NCBI GenBank assembly: GCA_018303005.1
Contig: JAGVYY010000031.1
Coordinates: 24,994-88,993 of the forward strand
Direction of reading: 5' to 3'
From: Candidatus Woesearchaeota archaeon
GTDB lineage: Archaea; Nanobdellota; Nanobdellia; SCGC-AAA011-G17; GW2011-AR20
Length of the DNA stretch: 64,000 nt
The notes under the pieces: model-generated
Database searches by the model: none
Told to the model about the DNA's origin: nothing
What the model saw: the letters and a program-made list of their open reading frames with translations, nothing else
In this document: piece after piece, positions 26,529-38,938 of the stretch
Numbering within the stretch: the stretch's first letter is position 1
Layout: the number at the start of each line of letters is the position of its first letter
Program-made: the position numbers and the translations under genes

Positions 26529-27398
26529 ATGAAACTAACACAGGGACAACCACTAATTCAGGTAAATGTTCCATATATATTTCAGGCTCAATATGATGAG
26601 CCAGGAAGAGAAGCAGTTAAGAAAATATTATCAGATTATAAAAATACAAATATAAGGTCTTTCAACCAGTTTCTGGAAAAAGGGCCTATAAAGGGAAGCA
26701 ATCCTTATTTTAGATTTGCTTTGGGAAATGCTTATAGGGAATTAACAAATCAAGATGTTCTCCCAATAAATCCTAAAGAAAGTGAAATAGCATTGGCAAA
26801 TAATACTTTAACAAATCCAGGAGAAACTTATGAAGAATTAGGATTATTAGTTTACTCTAATAAAGGCTATAATCTAGTATTATGGCAGCATCTAAGAGAA
26901 ATAGCAAAAACACAATACAAAGATTCTGTAGACCTAGAAATACCATTTGTAGTTACAGGCTTAATGAAACCGGTAAAAGATGATAAATTTGAAGATGGTT
27001 TAAGATTAGACACGATAGATGGATTAACATTAATGTACAATGTTCCAATATTAGCTCAAAGAACTAACAGATTTGATTCAGTTAATAAATTTGATTCAGA
27101 AGATCCAGAGTTACAAAGAACAGGATTTCCTGGTAAATTAGGAGAAGGTAATAGAATTCTATTCACACAAAATAATGGTGTCCATAGGTTGATTCGTGGT
27201 GGCGAGGGCTTGTATCTGTATGCTAGATATGGGAATCTTGTTACCATGCATGACGATTGTAGGATACATCTCGTCGCAAAAAATTCCAGTAGAAATCTTG
27301 ATGAATTAGTGCAACAGCTAGAACAGGAAAAGTTAAAACAACAACAAGAGTTAGAAACAAGATATAACCAAGCTCTTGAAATTTTAAAGAAAAGATAA
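26529..27398 (+). CDS. DGR target (variable) protein. The C-terminal region resembles the C-type-lectin/FGE-like fold that carries DGR variable regions (HRLIRGGEG...YARYG...DDCR)
   Basis: A variable-region-like repeat at 27177-27250 pairs with a template repeat downstream. 289 aa with no signal peptide. Confidence 0.6.
   Translation: MKLTQGQPLIQVNVPYIFQAQYDEPGREAVKKILSDYKNTNIRSFNQFLEKGPIKGSNPYFRFALGNAYRELTNQDVLPINPKESEIALANNTLTNPGETYEELGLLVYSNKGYNLVLWQHLREIAKTQYKDSVDLEIPFVVTGLMKPVKDDKFEDGLRLDTIDGLTLMYNVPILAQRTNRFDSVNKFDSEDPELQRTGFPGKLGEGNRILFTQNNGVHRLIRGGEGLYLYARYGNLVTMHDDCRIHLVAKNSSRNLDELVQQLEQEKLKQQQELETRYNQALEILKKR
27177..27250 (+). repeat. DGR variable region (VR) inside the target gene
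   Basis: About 70-nt similarity to 27573-27646. 9 of 12 mismatches fall where the template copy has A. One 3-nt indel. Confidence 0.6.
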
Positions 27399-27572
27399 TC
27401 TTAAAAGATAATCTTAAATATACTCTTTCATTTCTATTTTTACCTAGGCTTAGTCTAGGCCACAGGCTTACCCATAGTGCTATTTAAAATAGCCATGAAA
27501 TACAACTGATTATCTTTTGATAGAGAGATAATAAAAAGCAGTGAATGATATAAGAGTGGGCAAGCTATATCT

Positions 27573-27646
27573 GGTGTCCATAGGTTGGTTCATAGTAGGA
27601 ACTTGAATCTGAATGCTAGGTATGAGAATCTTGTTAACTCGAAATT
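27573..27646 (+). repeat. DGR template region (TR), rich in AAC/AAT codons, flanked by an inverted repeat (CCTAGGCTTAGTCT at about 27446 and AGACTAAGCTAGG at about 27689)
   Basis: Read from the sequence. Coordinates may be off by 1 nt. Confidence 0.55.
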
Positions 27647-27710
27647 TTCAGTTAGAAAAGAAAACGAAAATGACACCGGTAGAATGACATAGACTAAGCT
27701 AGGTTTTATT

Positions 27711-28757
27711 ATGAAAACTTACACCAGTCTTTACTTAAATTTATTTGATATAGATAGATTATATTTAGCTTATAAAAAAGCAAAAAAAGGTAAATCAAAT
27801 AAAGATTATGTTTAAAAATTTCAGAGAGATTTAATGAATAATCTATCTGCATTAAGGTTAGAACTATTCTTTCATTCCTATAAACCAAAACCATTAAAGA
27901 CTTTCATTATCAGGGACCCTAAAACAAGAAAAATCAGTAAATCTGATTTCAGGGACAGAATTGTGCATCATGCCTTAATCAATATTCTAGAACCAATATT
28001 CGATAAAGTTTTTATTTATGATAGTTATGCAAATAGGATTGGTAAAGGAACTACAAAAGCAATAGAAAGATTAAAATTATTTATTATAAAAGTTACTAAG
28101 AATAATAAAAGAAATACTTATTGCCTGAAACCAGATATTAAACATTATTTTGAAACTGTTAATCATGAAGTTTTATTGAATCTTATTAAAAGAAAGATAA
28201 GATAACAGAATAATATGGTTAATAAAAATAAATTTAGAAAACTATTATTTTAAAGAAAAAAATAAAGGTATGCCTCTAGGGAATTTAACCTCCCAATTTT
28301 TTGCTAACGTTTACTTAAATGAGCTTATCAATATATTAAACATAAATTAAAAGTTAAATATTATATAAGGTATGTGGATGATTTTGTTATATTACATGAA
28401 AATAAAAATAAATTAAATTTTTATAAGAATCAAATAAAGGAATTTTTAAAAAACAATCTAAAGATTGAGCTTCATAAAGATAAATCTAAAATATTTTTCA
28501 TAAGAAAAGGAATAACATTTTTAGGATTTAGGCATTTTTATTTTTATACCATATTAAATAAAAATAAAAGAAAACATGTCAATAATAAGATTAAAGATAT
28601 AATTAAAGAGAGTAAAGAAATGGAAGATTATAAAAAATTAATGCAAAGATTTGAATCTATTTTATCACATTTAGAAATTGGAAATACATATTATTTAAGA
28701 AACAATTTTATAGTTAAGTTAAACAATAATATTAATATGTTAAACATAAAGCAGTAG
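27711..28757 (+). pseudogene. DGR-type reverse transcriptase, degraded. Motifs 0-7 are all present but split over at least 4 segments by three in-frame TAA codons and at least two frameshifts
   Basis: Motif 0 is LYLAYKKAKKGK. Motifs 1-3 lie in the ORF at 27834-28205. Motif 4 is GMPLGNLTSQFFANVYLNEL (DGR hallmark). Motif 5 is YIRYVDDFVIL (ORF 28374-28757). Confidence 0.75.
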
Positions 28758-32152: not shown

Positions 32153-32470
32153 TTGATTTATAAAATGATAATCTCGTACATAACATGCAAAAATCAAAAA
32201 GAAGCTGAGAAAATATCCTATACGTTGTTAAACAGAAGATTAGCAGCATGCTGCAACTTAATTCAAGCAAGATCATTATACCTCTGGCAAAATAAGTTAA
32301 ATAAAGACAATGAAGTAATCATATTGGCAAAAACATTAGATAAAAAATTTAATAAAATAAAAAAAGAAGTTTTAAAAATACATTCATATAAAGTCCCATG
32401 CATTTTAAAGATAAAAATAGAAGAAACAAATGATAAATTTTTAACATGGTTAAAAAGTGAGGTAAGATGA
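32153..32470 (+). CDS. cutA: CutA divalent-cation tolerance protein
   Basis: 105 aa with ...LAACCNLI...SLYLWQNKL...HSYKVPCIL. Confidence 0.65.
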   Translation: MIYKMIISYITCKNQKEAEKISYTLLNRRLAACCNLIQARSLYLWQNKLNKDNEVIILAKTLDKKFNKIKKEVLKIHSYKVPCILKIKIEETNDKFLTWLKSEVR

Positions 32471-33084
32471 CCTTTATAAAAAAAATATTCGAGGATAAGA
32501 TTGATGATTCTGTGCATAGAAACTTCATAAGATTCAGCAAAGGAACTTTTTATAACAGGGCATTGACTAAATTGAAAGTTTCAAAGAATAAATGTAATAT
32601 TTATGCTAGTTTTGACCTGGCAAATTCATTAGTAAAGATATTCAGTAGCATGATAAGTACTGCAAAAATCTCTGGCCGATTGATTAAGAAAGGTAAAAAA
32701 AGTGAAATAGATGAAGAAGTAACATCAGACCAGTTAAACAAAATTATCGATGAAAATGATTATTGCCTGATAGATATCTCTATTAATGAATATTTGCTTA
32801 AATGTAAAAAATCCCTGCCAAAACCAGGAAAAGCTTTAGATCCCAAATTCTGTTCAGCCACATTACCCGTAGATAAAATTAAGGATTTGATATTTGATAT
32901 AAATGAGAATTTTAAACAGGCTGAAATATCACATATTTTTGTGATTAATGAACTGTCGATACCAAAAGAATACGAAAAAGATCCTGAAAAAGCCCGCATA
33001 TTTGCTAAAAGGAAGGGCAGAATAATAAGAAAAATAATATTGGACGGGAAAGAAATAACCAGAGAAAAAGAATTGATTGTTTAA
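32467..33084 (+). CDS. Hypothetical protein
   Basis: 205 aa with no recognisable domain. Confidence 0.4.
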   Translation: MTFIKKIFEDKIDDSVHRNFIRFSKGTFYNRALTKLKVSKNKCNIYASFDLANSLVKIFSSMISTAKISGRLIKKGKKSEIDEEVTSDQLNKIIDENDYCLIDISINEYLLKCKKSLPKPGKALDPKFCSATLPVDKIKDLIFDINENFKQAEISHIFVINELSIPKEYEKDPEKARIFAKRKGRIIRKIILDGKEITREKELIV

Positions 33085-33413: not shown

Positions 33414-34361
33414 ATGCCAAGAGCACATAAACCAAGGTCAGGAAGTCTGCAGTTTTGGCCAAGAAAAAGAGCTAGAAGAATCTACCCAAGAATAAGGTCA
33501 TGGGGTAAAACAGAGAAGGCAAATCTTTTGGGATTTATTGGTTATAAGGTTGGTATAACCCAAATACAAGGCATTGACCAGAATCCCAACAGGAAAATAA
33601 AAGATCCCATTGTAACTGCTGCCACAATAATAGAATGTCCGCCTCTGAAAGGGTTATCTGCAAGGTACTATAAAAAAACCAATAATGGACTAAAGGTTAT
33701 TGGAGAAACACTTGCTGAAAAACTTGACAAGAGCTTAGCAAGAAAGATAAGGCTCCCTAAAAAAGTAGCTAACAAGGAAATAAAAGAATATGATGATATA
33801 AGGTTGTTAATGTACACTCAGCCAGGCTTGACATCAATAGGGAAAAAAAAGCCGGAAATCATGGAAGTTGCTTTGTCTGGATCAAAAGAAGAAAAATTAG
33901 AGTTGGTTCATAAGTATTTAAATTCTGAGATTAAGGTTTCTGATATATTTAAAGATAATACATTTGTTGATATACATGCTGTGACAAAAGGTTATGGTTT
34001 TCAGGGTTCAGTAAAAAGATATGGCATAGCTTTAAAATCACACAAATCAGAAAAAACAAGAAGGTCTGTTGGAAATATGGGCTCTTGGACTCCAAAAAAA
34101 GTCTCTTTTAGAGTACCGCAACATGGTCAAACAGGATATCACACAAGAACTGAGTACAACAAATTTATTTATAAAATAAGCAATAACCTCTTAGATGTGA
34201 ATCCTAAATCAGGATTTTTACATTATGGTTTCATAAAAAATGATTATGTAATCATAAAAGGCTCAATTGCAGGTCCAGTAAAAAGACCTGTAAAATTCAC
34301 ATTTCCTATAAGGCAAATAAAAAACGCATATCCTTTCCAAATGATACAAGTCAAAAAATAA
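33414..34361 (+). CDS. rpl3: Ribosomal protein uL3
   Basis: MPRAHKPRSGSLQFWPRKRA... Confidence 0.95.
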   Translation: MPRAHKPRSGSLQFWPRKRARRIYPRIRSWGKTEKANLLGFIGYKVGITQIQGIDQNPNRKIKDPIVTAATIIECPPLKGLSARYYKKTNNGLKVIGETLAEKLDKSLARKIRLPKKVANKEIKEYDDIRLLMYTQPGLTSIGKKKPEIMEVALSGSKEEKLELVHKYLNSEIKVSDIFKDNTFVDIHAVTKGYGFQGSVKRYGIALKSHKSEKTRRSVGNMGSWTPKKVSFRVPQHGQTGYHTRTEYNKFIYKISNNLLDVNPKSGFLHYGFIKNDYVIIKGSIAGPVKRPVKFTFPIRQIKNAYPFQMIQVKK

Positions 34362-34362
34362 A

Positions 34363-35178
34363 ATGAAAATGAATGTTCTAGATTTAAATGGAAAAAATTT
34401 AAAGCAGATTGATGTTCCTGAACAATTTGAGGGAGAATACAATCAGGACTTGATTAAAAGAGCTGTTATGGCAATACAGTCAAATAAGAGACAGCCATAC
34501 GGGGCAAAACCAAGAGCAGGAAAAAGATACTCCTCGAAATTATCCAGAAGAAGAAGGCAATACAAAGGGTCATATGGCCATGGAATGTCAAGAGTTCCAA
34601 GAAAAGTGATGTGGAGAAGAGGAATGCAGTTTGGCTATGTTGGAGCCCATGCACCCGGAACAGTTGGTGGAAGAAGAGCGCATCCACCTAAGGCAGAGAA
34701 AAGATGGAATAAAAAAATAAATATAAATGAAAGAAGGAAAGCAATAAGATCATCTCTGGCAGCATCTTTGAATTTAGAGATAATAAAACAGAGAAATCAC
34801 ATAGCACCACAGAACTTCCCATTCTTTGTAACATCTGAAATTGAAGATATAAAAAAAACAAAAGACATTCTGAATGTTTTAAACACCTTAGGATTTAGGC
34901 AAGAGCTGGAAAGGGTTATAAAGAAAACTGTCAAGGCAGGAAAAGGTAAGAGCAGGAACAGGCCTTACAAAAAGAAAAAAGGACCTTTGATAGTTGTCTC
35001 AAAAAAATGTTCCTTGATTAAGTCAGCATCTAATATACCTGGTATAGATATAATAGACATAAAGAATATCAATGTTGAATTATTGGCACCAGGAACAATA
35101 CCTGGGCGTTTAACGCTCTATACAGAAAATGCTGTTGAAACATTAATAAAAGATAAATTATTCTTGAACAAAAAATGA
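34363..35178 (+). CDS. rpl4: Ribosomal protein uL4
   Basis: The expected archaeal L4 gene in the conserved gene order. Confidence 0.9.
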   Translation: MKMNVLDLNGKNLKQIDVPEQFEGEYNQDLIKRAVMAIQSNKRQPYGAKPRAGKRYSSKLSRRRRQYKGSYGHGMSRVPRKVMWRRGMQFGYVGAHAPGTVGGRRAHPPKAEKRWNKKININERRKAIRSSLAASLNLEIIKQRNHIAPQNFPFFVTSEIEDIKKTKDILNVLNTLGFRQELERVIKKTVKAGKGKSRNRPYKKKKGPLIVVSKKCSLIKSASNIPGIDIIDIKNINVELLAPGTIPGRLTLYTENAVETLIKDKLFLNKK

Positions 35179-35705
35179 AATATAACAATGACACTGGAAA
35201 AGTAATAAGCATACCTACACCTCTTAAAATAAAAGAAATTGTAATGGGGTTATTTGCAGTAGATGGAATATTAAAGAGTGAAGAAGCAATATCAGACATT
35301 GTAAGAAATCTTGATGGATATAATTTAAGGGTGTTTTACACAAATCAAAAGGTGGCAGATATAATCTCGAAAAATTATAATGGATCCATAGGTGAAATAA
35401 GTTTTATAATGCCGGATGATAAAAGAATGGGGGCAAGCATAGATGACTTTCTTTGTAGAGATGATACCTTAATCGATGGCGTCATATTTTACTGTGATGA
35501 TGCAAGTTATTATCCGATGCTCAATGCAATAGCAAATATAATCTATGCAAATCAGCAGATACCTGCTGTTGCCTTTCCAAATGCCGGGCAGATAGCAAGG
35601 ACTTTCCTGGACCATAACAGGAATAAAAAAACCATAGGTTTAGTTCGCACACCTGAAGAAGCCGTACATACAATAATAGAACAGATAAATCAATCAACTA
35701 CATGA
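35175..35705 (+). CDS. Hypothetical 176-aa protein (alpha/beta Rossmann-like pattern) inserted between rpl4 and rpl23 and translationally coupled to both
   Basis: The start overlaps the rpl4 stop (ATGA) and the stop overlaps the rpl23 start. It has no counterpart in the canonical archaeal operon. Confidence 0.5.
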   Translation: MKYNNDTGKVISIPTPLKIKEIVMGLFAVDGILKSEEAISDIVRNLDGYNLRVFYTNQKVADIISKNYNGSIGEISFIMPDDKRMGASIDDFLCRDDTLIDGVIFYCDDASYYPMLNAIANIIYANQQIPAVAFPNAGQIARTFLDHNRNKKTIGLVRTPEEAVHTIIEQINQSTT

Positions 35706-35992
35706 CCAATGCAAAAATGATAAAAAACAACACAGATCCATACAAAATAATAAAATATCCTGTATCAACAGAGAAAGCAGTAAGATTAATGGAAAAAGAC
35801 AATAAATTGACTTTTATAGTTGAAAGAAAATCAACAAAGTTAGACATAAAGAAAGCATTAGAGCATATATACAAACTGAAAATTTCAGAAATAAATACGG
35901 TAATAACAAACAAAGGTCTTAAAAAGGCATACATCAAGCTTTCAAAGGAAACCACTGCTTTGGACATAGCAACACAAATAGGAATAATGTAA
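35702..35992 (+). CDS. rpl23: Ribosomal protein uL23
   Basis: YPVSTEKAVRLMEKDNKLTFIV. Confidence 0.9.
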   Translation: MTNAKMIKNNTDPYKIIKYPVSTEKAVRLMEKDNKLTFIVERKSTKLDIKKALEHIYKLKISEINTVITNKGLKKAYIKLSKETTALDIATQIGIM

Positions 35993-35993
35993 G

Positions 35994-36707
35994 ATGGGAA
36001 AGAATCTGAAACAGCAAAGACGAGGAAAAGGATCTTTAAGATTTAGAGCTCCTAGCCATAATTACAAGACTAGAATAAACTTTCCAATTTCATCAGAGCA
36101 GGCATATGGTATAGTGGTAGATTTTATTCATGATCCTTCTAAAAATGCACCTATCGCAAAAATATCTTTGGATAATAAACAGGAAATGCTTATTCCTGCA
36201 GTTGAAGGAATCAAGGTTGGAGACAGGATAGGTTATATGAATAAAGAAACTTCTGTAGGAAGCATAGCCAGGTTAAAAGATTTGGCAATAGGAACAAACA
36301 TATCAAACATAGAGAAGATACCAAATTCGAGTAAAGGTGCATTCTGCAGATCAGCAGGTGCAACAGCAGCAGTGTTCTCAAAAACAGATAATGCTGTAAC
36401 ATTAGTCTTTAATTCAAAAAAACAAAAAACATTCCATCCTGAATGCAGGGCGATTGTTGGAGTAACTGCAGGCTCAGGCAGATTAGATAAGCCAATTGTT
36501 AAGGCAGGGAAAAAATATTTCATGATGAAATCAAGGAACAGGTTTTGGCCAAGGGTTTCAGGAGTATCAATGAATGCAGTGGCACATCCTTTTGGTTCAG
36601 GTAGAGGCAAGCATCTTGGAAAATCAAAGACACCCCCTAGATTTGCCCCGCCAGGAAGAAAAGTAGGACAGTTGCATGCCAGAAGAACCGGAAGAAGGAC
36701 GAAATAA
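35994..36707 (+). CDS. rpl2: Ribosomal protein uL2
   Basis: The expected archaeal L2 gene in the conserved gene order. Confidence 0.95.
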   Translation: MGKNLKQQRRGKGSLRFRAPSHNYKTRINFPISSEQAYGIVVDFIHDPSKNAPIAKISLDNKQEMLIPAVEGIKVGDRIGYMNKETSVGSIARLKDLAIGTNISNIEKIPNSSKGAFCRSAGATAAVFSKTDNAVTLVFNSKKQKTFHPECRAIVGVTAGSGRLDKPIVKAGKKYFMMKSRNRFWPRVSGVSMNAVAHPFGSGRGKHLGKSKTPPRFAPPGRKVGQLHARRTGRRTK

Positions 36708-38427: not shown

Positions 38428-38742
38428 ATGGCCAATGCATGCCCAAAATGTGGGCTGACGTTAGAGTTATGTGTTTGCGAGATAATAGCAAAAGAAGGAC
38501 AGCAGATAAAGATATATACCATAAAGAAGAGATTCGGCAAAACAGCGACGATGATTGAAGGTATTGATGCAAAGGACATAAACTTGAAAGATTTGGCAAA
38601 GAAACTAAAGTCAAAGTTAGCATGTGGGGGAACAGTGAAATTAGGTATAATAGAACTCCAGGGAGACCATATGCATAAAGTTAAAGACGAGCTGATAAAT
38701 CTTGGATTTGTTGCAAACACAATATATCTAAACAAAAAATAA
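38428..38742 (+). CDS. sui1: Translation initiation factor SUI1 (aIF1) with an N-terminal zinc ribbon
   Basis: CPKCGLTLELCVC, then the SUI1 domain GGTVKLGIIELQGDH. Confidence 0.85.
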   Translation: MANACPKCGLTLELCVCEIIAKEGQQIKIYTIKKRFGKTATMIEGIDAKDINLKDLAKKLKSKLACGGTVKLGIIELQGDHMHKVKDELINLGFVANTIYLNKK

Positions 38743-38746
38743 GAAA

Positions 38747-38938
38747 GTGGTAAACAAGTTGCCCGAAATAGAACTAATAGGTTCCGTTATTGAGGTAATA
38801 AAATCCAGAAATCCGGCATTAATCGGTATTAAAGGTAAGGTTATTGATGAGACAAAGAACATGATTGTAATAGAGGACAAAAACGAAAGAGTTAAAAAAT
38901 TAATTAGATCACAAGTGCAGATAAAGAAGATAAAATGA
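38747..38938 (+). CDS. rnp1: RNase P protein component Rpp29 (Rnp1)
   Basis: Conserved position between sui1 and rps17. Likely GTG start. Confidence 0.7.
   Translation: MVNKLPEIELIGSVIEVIKSRNPALIGIKGKVIDETKNMIVIEDKNERVKKLIRSQVQIKKIK

Follow-up and report, generated by a model that had tools for sequence, protein, structure and literature searches.

Few gene arrangements are as rigid as the S10-type ribosomal protein operon, and a gene that has entered it and persisted there is therefore a natural experiment. Such a case is found in a 64,000-nucleotide stretch of Candidatus Woesearchaeota archaeon (assembly GCA_018303005.1, contig JAGVYY010000031.1, positions 24,994 to 88,993 of the forward strand; hereafter the window), where an open reading frame (ORF) of 176 aa with an ATG start, here called gene X, occupies positions 35175..35705 (+) between rpl4 and rpl23. 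The original prediction, made from the letters of the window, had proposed that its product is a lineage-specific ribosome-associated factor or a new ribosomal protein. What is gene X, and does its product belong to the ribosome? The analysis described here identifies X as a genuine gene of a narrowly distributed and previously undescribed family, whose position between rpl4 and rpl23 is conserved in a diverged relative. On balance we favor the reading that X encodes a lineage-specific accessory passenger of the operon and not a structural ribosomal protein, with a function that would be unlinked or only loosely linked to the ribosome.

A genuine gene between rpl4 and rpl23

The presence of a 176-aa ORF between the two genes was confirmed by the ORF listing of the window and by Pfam identification of both flanks, and both peptide fragments quoted with the original prediction were found within its translation. 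The product is deposited at NCBI as MBS3134350.1, a 'hypothetical protein' of Candidatus Woesearchaeota archaeon. Codon statistics, composition, diverged homologues and structure prediction together identify X as a genuine gene. When scored with a codon table built from the neighboring operon genes, the annotated frame was the best of all six, with a log-likelihood of -3.82 per codon compared to -4.18 to -4.34 in the other five frames, a margin equal to that of bona fide ribosomal protein genes. The GC content of X (0.34) and that of its third codon positions (GC3, 0.27) lie within the range of the operon, and X is therefore not a recent foreign insertion. An Rfam scan detected no RNA family in or near X, and no paralogue of X was obtained by a hidden Markov model search of six-frame ORFs from the 64-kb window and all 60 fetched loci.

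The genes and junctions surrounding X are listed below with their positions in the window, their strand and the supporting evidence (pI, isoelectric point).

33414..34361, +, rpl3 (uL3), first gene of a tightly packed run; ORF, and PF00297 on the identical contig L050
34363..35178, +, rpl4 (uL4), 271 aa, pI 10.65; Pfam Ribosomal_L4 PF00573, E=1e-35
35175..35178, +, ATGA junction with the X start on the rpl4 stop; raw sequence, from which coupling is presumed
35175..35705, +, gene X, encoding a 176-aa acidic single-domain protein with a predicted Rossmann-like alpha/beta fold; codon statistics, homologues and structure model
35278..35432, +, X segment of 155 bp deleted in contig L060; contig alignment
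35702..35705, +, ATGA junction with the first rpl23 ATG on the X stop; raw sequence
35702..35992, +, rpl23 (uL23), 96 aa, pI 9.84; Pfam Ribosomal_L23 PF00276, E=1.5e-16
35994..36707, +, rpl2 (uL2); ORF coordinates and Pfam
38428-38742, +, SUI1, in the same operon; Pfam

X lies on the same strand as both neighbors, with stop/start overlaps on each side and no intergenic space. Its start codon overlaps the rpl4 stop at 35175-35178 (aaaaaATGAaat, also written AAAAAATGAAAT), and the first ATG of rpl23 overlaps the X stop at 35702-35705 (actacATGAcc, also written ACTACATGACC). A second in-frame ATG of rpl23 is present at 35717 and was picked as the start by the gene caller on contig L060; should translation begin there, an 11-nt spacer would lie between X and rpl23 in place of the overlap. 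Of the two overlaps that had been described for this locus, the one with rpl4 is therefore present as stated, and the one with rpl23 holds for the first ATG but not for the second. With either rpl23 start, the spacing is too tight to accommodate a separate promoter. From rpl3 (33414), which is preceded by a 109-nt gap, to rps4e (40749), all junctions either overlap or have a spacer of at most 4 nt, the gene order after rpl2 being rps19, rpl22, rps3, rpl29, SUI1, RNase P p29, rps17, rpl14, rpl24 and rps4e. X is thus embedded in one unbroken polycistronic block. Co-expression with ribosomal proteins, as had been suggested, is the natural reading of this tight embedding, in which a common transcript would be expected.

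Two further genes in and near the operon were noted. The RNase P p29 gene (38747-38938, +) is very short, with a product of 63 aa that covers only positions 2-54 of the 84-position Pfam model. Just upstream of the operon, between a CutA1-like and a DUF167 gene, a 205-aa ORF (32467-33084, +) overlaps both neighbors; Pfam gives no match to it, and a variant contig carries a version of 202 aa.

A tiny family with a conserved position

An exhaustive phmmer search with X against 1.84 billion cluster representatives returned three matches. P0001 is a 38-aa stub of X itself, P0002 is a C-terminally truncated protein of 142 aa (E=3.9e-12) and P0003 has 180 aa (E=5.7e-6). X, P0002 and P0003 are mutually 29-34% identical over nearly the entire domain (29% between X and P0003), and they have in common the motifs IDxF, DGV and YxD(H/Y)xR(N)KK as well as a conserved hydrophobic beta-alpha periodicity. 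In a word-indexed search of 5.8 billion clusters no match was obtained with X alone, and the family profile retrieved P0002, P0003 and, beyond these two, only P0004, which is a chimeric copy of P0003. Metagenome contigs, viral contigs, phage genomes and plasmids were searched as well and contained no relatives of X. The family is tiny, comprising three lineages among about 15 billion proteins. P0002 derives from a protein-level assembly (source 'SRC') with no contig on record. The product of L049:50-535 (P0004) equals P0003 for ~127 residues and then diverges entirely, and it probably reflects a chimeric assembly, not a fourth member of the family.

X itself is carried by at least 23 contigs from groundwater metagenomes, among which are the JGI 3300002105 and ANAN16 samples. 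Ten of them, retrieved by exact protein match, were nearly identical to the window; the X DNA is identical in all ten, which are hence uninformative on selection. Both the copy in the window and its syntenic relative P0003 were found only in groundwater metagenomes.

One diverged relative, P0003, has its gene at the same operon position. Three short contigs (L046-L048), each from a different assembly, carry this gene between the C-terminus of L4 and the N-terminus of L23. In L046 the upstream frame ends with SEKCSLIKAISNTPGIDVAEIKNINAELLAPGTQAGRLTLYTEKAIEKLNKEKLFMNKK directly before its stop codon and shares 75% identity with the window at the L4 C-terminus. The P0003 gene starts in an ATGA that overlaps this L4 stop (L046:193-196), and the downstream frame begins with MAETKFDPFSIIKYPVSSEKAVRL, the N-terminus of L23, 14 nt before the stop of the X homologue. 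As judged from these sequences, the order L4-X-L23 and the coupling geometry are kept despite the divergence of X to 29% identity, and X is conserved beyond the population represented by the window.

To what extent this junction is occupied in related archaea was analyzed with loci recovered by an L4 probe. JGI/ENA metagenomes supplied 28 of these loci and GTDB species representatives another 17, and their L4 is 30-64% identical to that of the window. None of the 43 DPANN/Woesearchaeota loci holding both L4 and L23 contained X or any other credible gene between the two (0/43), and in 38 of them the L4-L23 gap was at most 30 nt, in line with the assertion that rpl4 and rpl23 are normally contiguous. 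For three of the remaining five loci (L011, L025 and L033) an ORF scan attributed the extra length to Lys/Glu-rich extensions of L4 or L23, and in L020 ~100 non-coding nt lie between the two genes; the junction of L019, the fifth locus with a gap above 30 nt, was not inspected further. The Lys/Glu-rich tails are of low complexity and were located at the L4 C-terminus in L011:3974-4858 and L025:2478-3386 and at the L23 N-terminus in L033:3344-3820. They show the plasticity of the L4-L23 junction in this phylum.

Identical sequences aside, the L4 C-terminus most similar to that of the window belongs to the P0003 lineage (75%). In L017 and L018, the next-closest relatives (67% over the L4 C-terminus, 60% over the full length of L4), 12 nt separate L4 from L23 and X is absent. 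The simplest history consistent with these sequences would be that X was inserted once, in the common ancestor of a small clade.

At another junction of the same operon, a 117-aa orphan ORF lies seamlessly between rpl23 and rpl2 in Woesearchaeota RIFCSPHIGHO2_02_FULL_30_43 (L008:5031-5384, equal to L026:4031-4384). Pfam gives no match to this ORF, a 98%-identical copy is its sole relative in the databases, and its presence shows that passengers of this kind are tolerated by the operon. A relationship of this ORF to X was considered and rejected (hhalign probability 0.1%).

The protein encoded by X

Pfam, NCBIfam, PHROGs and PADLOC gave no match to X or to any family member, with Pfam and NCBIfam matches reported up to an E-value of 10, although the filters of the tool drop most matches above about 0.1. 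X thereby corresponds to no known family or domain insert in these profile searches. Searches of PDB sequences with X alone and with the three-sequence profile gave noise only (gp41 coiled coils; ST0493 at E=0.39).

The Rossmann-like alpha/beta pattern that had been noticed in the translation was supported by structure prediction. A single-sequence AlphaFold2 model of X reached a predicted local distance difference test score (pLDDT) of 69 and a predicted template modeling score (pTM) of 0.67; with the three-sequence alignment these values were 73.6 and 0.73, and all five models had a pLDDT of 66-74. The model consists of six alternating beta-alpha units that follow a disordered N-terminal segment of ~20 residues, which is specific to the X of the window. 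Foldseek searches of both models against the PDB yielded ~1,800 weak matches. Nearly all of the matches listed are three-layer alpha/beta proteins of the Rossmann-like or flavodoxin-like kind (E ~1e-3, template modeling score (TM) 0.4-0.57, identity 8-16%) and include TrkA/KTN domains, short-chain dehydrogenases/reductases (SDRs), malate dehydrogenase N-domains, UbiX, WrbA, methylglyoxal synthase and halves of GT-B proteins. In three fold searches the top TM-scores were obtained for members of the LOG family, namely 1wek (0.56), 5zi9 (0.57) and the LOG protein of cyanophage S-CAM7 in BFVD (0.57). In the predicted models this resemblance extends no further than the generic fold and is a lead only.

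Signature motifs of LOG proteins are GGGxGxMG and PGGxGTxxE. Direct reading of the three family sequences showed that the dipeptide GG, GxGxxG and PGGxGT are absent from all of them. The segments after beta1 read MGLFAVDGIL, IGVFASCRDS and IGVFILGDYT in the three members, with only the first Gly conserved, and the GxGxxG/A phosphate-binding loop expected at this position is absent from the three sequences. X was accordingly not assigned to the LOG family (Pfam PF03641, SLOG superfamily), as the LOG motifs are absent and no member of the X family matched the clan in Pfam or NCBIfam. Nor was it assigned to the dinucleotide-binding Rossmann enzymes, with which it has only the general fold in common.

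Is X a ribosomal protein?

From its sequence, X is probably not a structural ribosomal protein. The 12 ribosomal proteins scored in the operon have a pI of 9.2-11.1 and a content of lysine plus arginine of 18-27%, compared to a pI of 4.98 and 10% for X; the pI of its relatives is 4.72 and 4.99. Acidic ribosomal proteins exist (P-stalk), and acidity is thus indicative, not absolute. X moreover diverges much faster than the adjoining segments of L4 and L23 when the sequences are compared, as X and P0003 are 29% identical, whereas identity in the same lineage pair reaches 75% in the neighboring L4 C-terminus and 67% in the L23 N-terminus. No homology to a known ribosomal protein family was detected in Pfam, NCBIfam or PDB sequences even at E-values up to 10, and no ribosomal chain is among the listed top-50 Foldseek matches in the PDB. 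Broad phyletic conservation was likewise not found, with X in 0/43 related loci and in three lineages in the database searches.

One population variant carries a disrupted copy. Contig L060 matches the window at 100% over 555 aligned bases except for a 155-bp deletion (window 35278-35432), which frameshifts X and leaves the 38-aa stub P0001 (L060:5001-5117). This deletion was seen in one contig, compared to at least 23 contigs with intact X, and may be either a real loss-of-function variant or an assembly artefact. If it is real, X is dispensable at least transiently.

The position in the operon is weak evidence of a ribosomal function, because non-ribosomal genes (SUI1, RNase P p29) and the orphan ORF of L008 also reside there, and because anything inserted into this rigid operon tends to stay. 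Since X is acidic and fast-diverging, is missing in the next-closest relatives, which have normal L4 and L23, and occurs in one disrupted copy, it is probably not a ribosomal protein. The proposal of a lineage-specific ribosome-associated factor or new ribosomal protein is thus borne out in its lineage specificity and left unsupported in its ribosomal role.

Weighing the explanations for X

How could an accessory gene have come to reside, and to remain, in this operon? In the scenario that we favor, X was inserted once between rpl4 and rpl23 in the common ancestor of a small groundwater Woesearchaeota clade and has been retained since. Having no promoter space of its own, it would be transcribed on the polycistronic mRNA that extends from rpl3 to rps4e. 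Ribosomes ending rpl4 would start X at the ATGA by termination-reinitiation, and those ending X would then initiate rpl23, so that the X frame may double as a relay for rpl23 translation. X would be made at roughly the amounts of ribosomal proteins, and the relay role would add selection for an open frame. The product is predicted to be a soluble, acidic, single-domain protein of ~20 kDa with a three-layer alpha/beta (Rossmann-like) fold, acting outside the ribosome core. Because every canonical glycine-rich nucleotide-binding loop is lacking in X, a binding or scaffolding module appears more likely than a classical enzyme of the dehydrogenase or LOG type. X is probably dispensable to its hosts.

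Several points weigh against this scenario. Retention in the same slot, with two-sided coupling, down to ~30% identity is also expected of a protein that partners L4, L23 or the ribosome. The deletion in L060 may be an assembly artefact, and the dispensability of X is conditional on its being real. The single insertion is read from a 64-aa segment of L4, and conservation of the slot is known from P0003 only, P0002 having no contig on record. With a family of only three sequences, both the conservation analysis and the structure model are weak, and the proposed function of X is drawn from sequence and model.

Among the alternatives, the one that deserves most attention holds that X is linked to the ribosome after all, as a lineage-specific ribosomal protein, an exit-tunnel factor or an acidic escort or assembly chaperone that would capture nascent L4 and/or L23, its very basic neighbors. 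uL4 lines the exit tunnel and uL23 is located where the tunnel opens; in eukaryotes, individual ribosomal proteins are served by dedicated acidic chaperones, e.g. Acl4 for uL4. X is coupled on both sides to the genes of these two proteins, the slot is kept in a relative at 29% identity, and the acidic pI of all three members (4.7-5.0) complements that of L4 (10.65) and L23 (9.84). A compact folded domain without enzyme-type nucleotide loops would also suit such a role. Lineage-specific ribosome-binding accessory proteins of archaea, one of them a repurposed enzyme, are described from cryo-electron microscopy in three reports (PMC12605026, PMC11724365, PMC13324472), and their existence keeps this explanation alive. 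However, an acidic and fast-evolving protein is unlike the rRNA-binding ribosomal proteins, X is missing from 43 related operons including those of the nearest sampled relatives with ordinary L4 and L23, and one population variant (L060) has it frameshifted. Its position is uninformative, as SUI1, RNase P p29 and the L008 orphan share the operon, and no known ribosome-binding protein was found among the listed fold matches. We therefore regard a link to the ribosome as unlikely, though well worth keeping in mind. In its most specific form, X would be the first archaeal dedicated partner of ribosomal proteins encoded in their operon, binding uL4 and/or uL23 as an escort, assembly chaperone or exit-tunnel factor, and the order L4-X-L23 would then reflect co-translational assembly; this we consider quite improbable. 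It is about equally doubtful that X is a binder of small molecules or nucleotides, or a LOG/SLOG-like Rossmannoid enzyme, that has nothing to do with the ribosome and takes advantage of the operon's strong constitutive expression. The best TM-scores in three independent fold searches did point to LOG proteins (0.56-0.57), and the IGVFA(S) motif of beta1 and a strand-loop-helix element, IDGV(I/L)xxxD..., are presumed to sit where LOG proteins have their beta1 and PGGxGTxxE elements. Yet TM-scores of 0.5-0.57 at 8-15% identity are generic, many unrelated Rossmann folds scoring alike, and neither LOG motif nor any glycine-rich loop occurs in any member. The profile searches, in spite of their permissive reporting limit and within the filtering stated above, gave no Pfam or NCBIfam match, LOG included.

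That X has no function at all, being either a decaying remnant or an ORF held open only as a translational relay for rpl23, would fit its extremely narrow distribution, its rapid divergence and the existence of a frameshifted variant, and the coupling geometry would select for an open frame whatever the product. Against this, three lineages keep the domain with its hydrophobic beta-alpha periodicity and shared motifs, AlphaFold2 folds X consistently from almost no alignment, and codon usage is gene-like. A pure relay would also be expected to shrink, yet X has 176-180 aa in both lineages for which the full length is known, and we think it very unlikely that the gene is without function. The least probable explanation, to which we give hardly any weight, is that X was carried into the operon by a mobile or viral element targeting it. 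X is an orphan without cellular homologues and an insertion relative to all other lineages, as such cargo would be. However, no inverted repeats, integrase or endonuclease are present, its composition is identical to that of the host operon, and the insertion is a precise single ORF with seamless coupling that is conserved between diverged lineages. Furthermore, IMG/VR contigs, phage genomes, plasmids, PHROGs and PADLOC contained no matches. The sole repeat straddling X is a 13-nt exact direct pair inside the coding sequences of rpl4 and rpl23 (both encode Asp-Ile-Lys), which is most likely a chance match in AT-rich DNA.

A putative diversity-generating retroelement elsewhere in the window

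Apart from the ribosomal protein operon, the window contains a likely diversity-generating retroelement at 26529-28757 (+). An Rfam match to the RT-16 RNA was obtained at 27443-27573 (50.3 bits, gathering score 50). The reverse transcriptase appears to be split, with the adjacent ORFs 27834-28205 and 28374-28757 representing its N- and C-terminal halves (Pfam RVT_1). An imperfect repeat of ~70 nt connects the 3' part (~27178-27245) of an unannotated 289-aa ORF (26529-27398) with an intergenic copy (~27571-27638). At several mismatched positions the intergenic copy carries an A, as expected of a template/variable pair, and the pair also has non-A mismatches and a 3-nt indel, unlike this expectation.

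Significance and comparison with known systems

A literature search turned up no account of the X gene, nor of any insertion between L4 and L23. X shows that an orphan gene can enter this junction, gain two-sided coupling and survive to a divergence of ~30% identity. With a second orphan at the L23-L2 junction in L008, this suggests that orphan insertion is recurrent in the small, fast-evolving genomes of these DPANN archaea. If X binds L4, L23 or the exit tunnel, it would represent a new class among the lineage-specific accessory proteins of the ribosome; if it has no such partner, it would be an example of how orphan genes gain very high constitutive expression. In either case practical impact is limited by the tiny family and the uncultured hosts.

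At the level of the protein, several known groups resemble X in part. LOG/SLOG proteins (1wek, TT1465; 5zi9, a type-II LOG) are like X in size, in their single three-layer alpha/beta domain and in giving the best TM-scores (0.56-0.57). They differ in that X is only 8-12% identical to them, lacks GGGxGxMG, PGGxGTxxE and even a GG dipeptide, and matches no Pfam family. Rossmann folds that bind dinucleotides (SDR, TrkA/KTN and malate dehydrogenase N-domains) share the alternating beta-alpha topology and account for most Foldseek matches, with a probability of 0.9-1.0, whereas the TM-scores of X to them are only 0.4-0.5 and the GxGxxG/A loop after beta1 is missing. The eukaryotic chaperones of ribosomal proteins (Acl4/uL4) offer an analogy: like X they are acidic, and their synthesis is tied to a very basic ribosomal protein, a link that for X would consist in the adjacent coupled cistron. 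Acl4 is a tetratricopeptide repeat protein with no relation to X in sequence or fold, and the likeness may be taken as pure analogy.

At the level of the locus, a close parallel is the 117-aa orphan ORF of L008, which is likewise strain-restricted and inserted seamlessly between two universally adjacent ribosomal protein genes of the same operon and in the same phylum. It occupies a different junction, is unrelated in sequence and has no diverged homologue, whereas X has two. Non-ribosomal genes are otherwise familiar residents of archaeal ribosomal protein operons: SUI1/aIF1 and RNase P p29 are, like X, packed into the polycistronic run with nearly adjoining or overlapping stop and start codons, and secY, adk and cmk are further examples located downstream. 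SUI1/aIF1, RNase P p29 and such embedded genes have known functions, are ancient and occur widely among archaea. X, in contrast, is limited to three known lineages, belongs to no known family and lies at a junction that is unoccupied in 43/43 comparison loci. Its presence in the ribosomal protein operon is a new instance of a known phenomenon; what is new is the junction that it occupies and the protein family to which it belongs.

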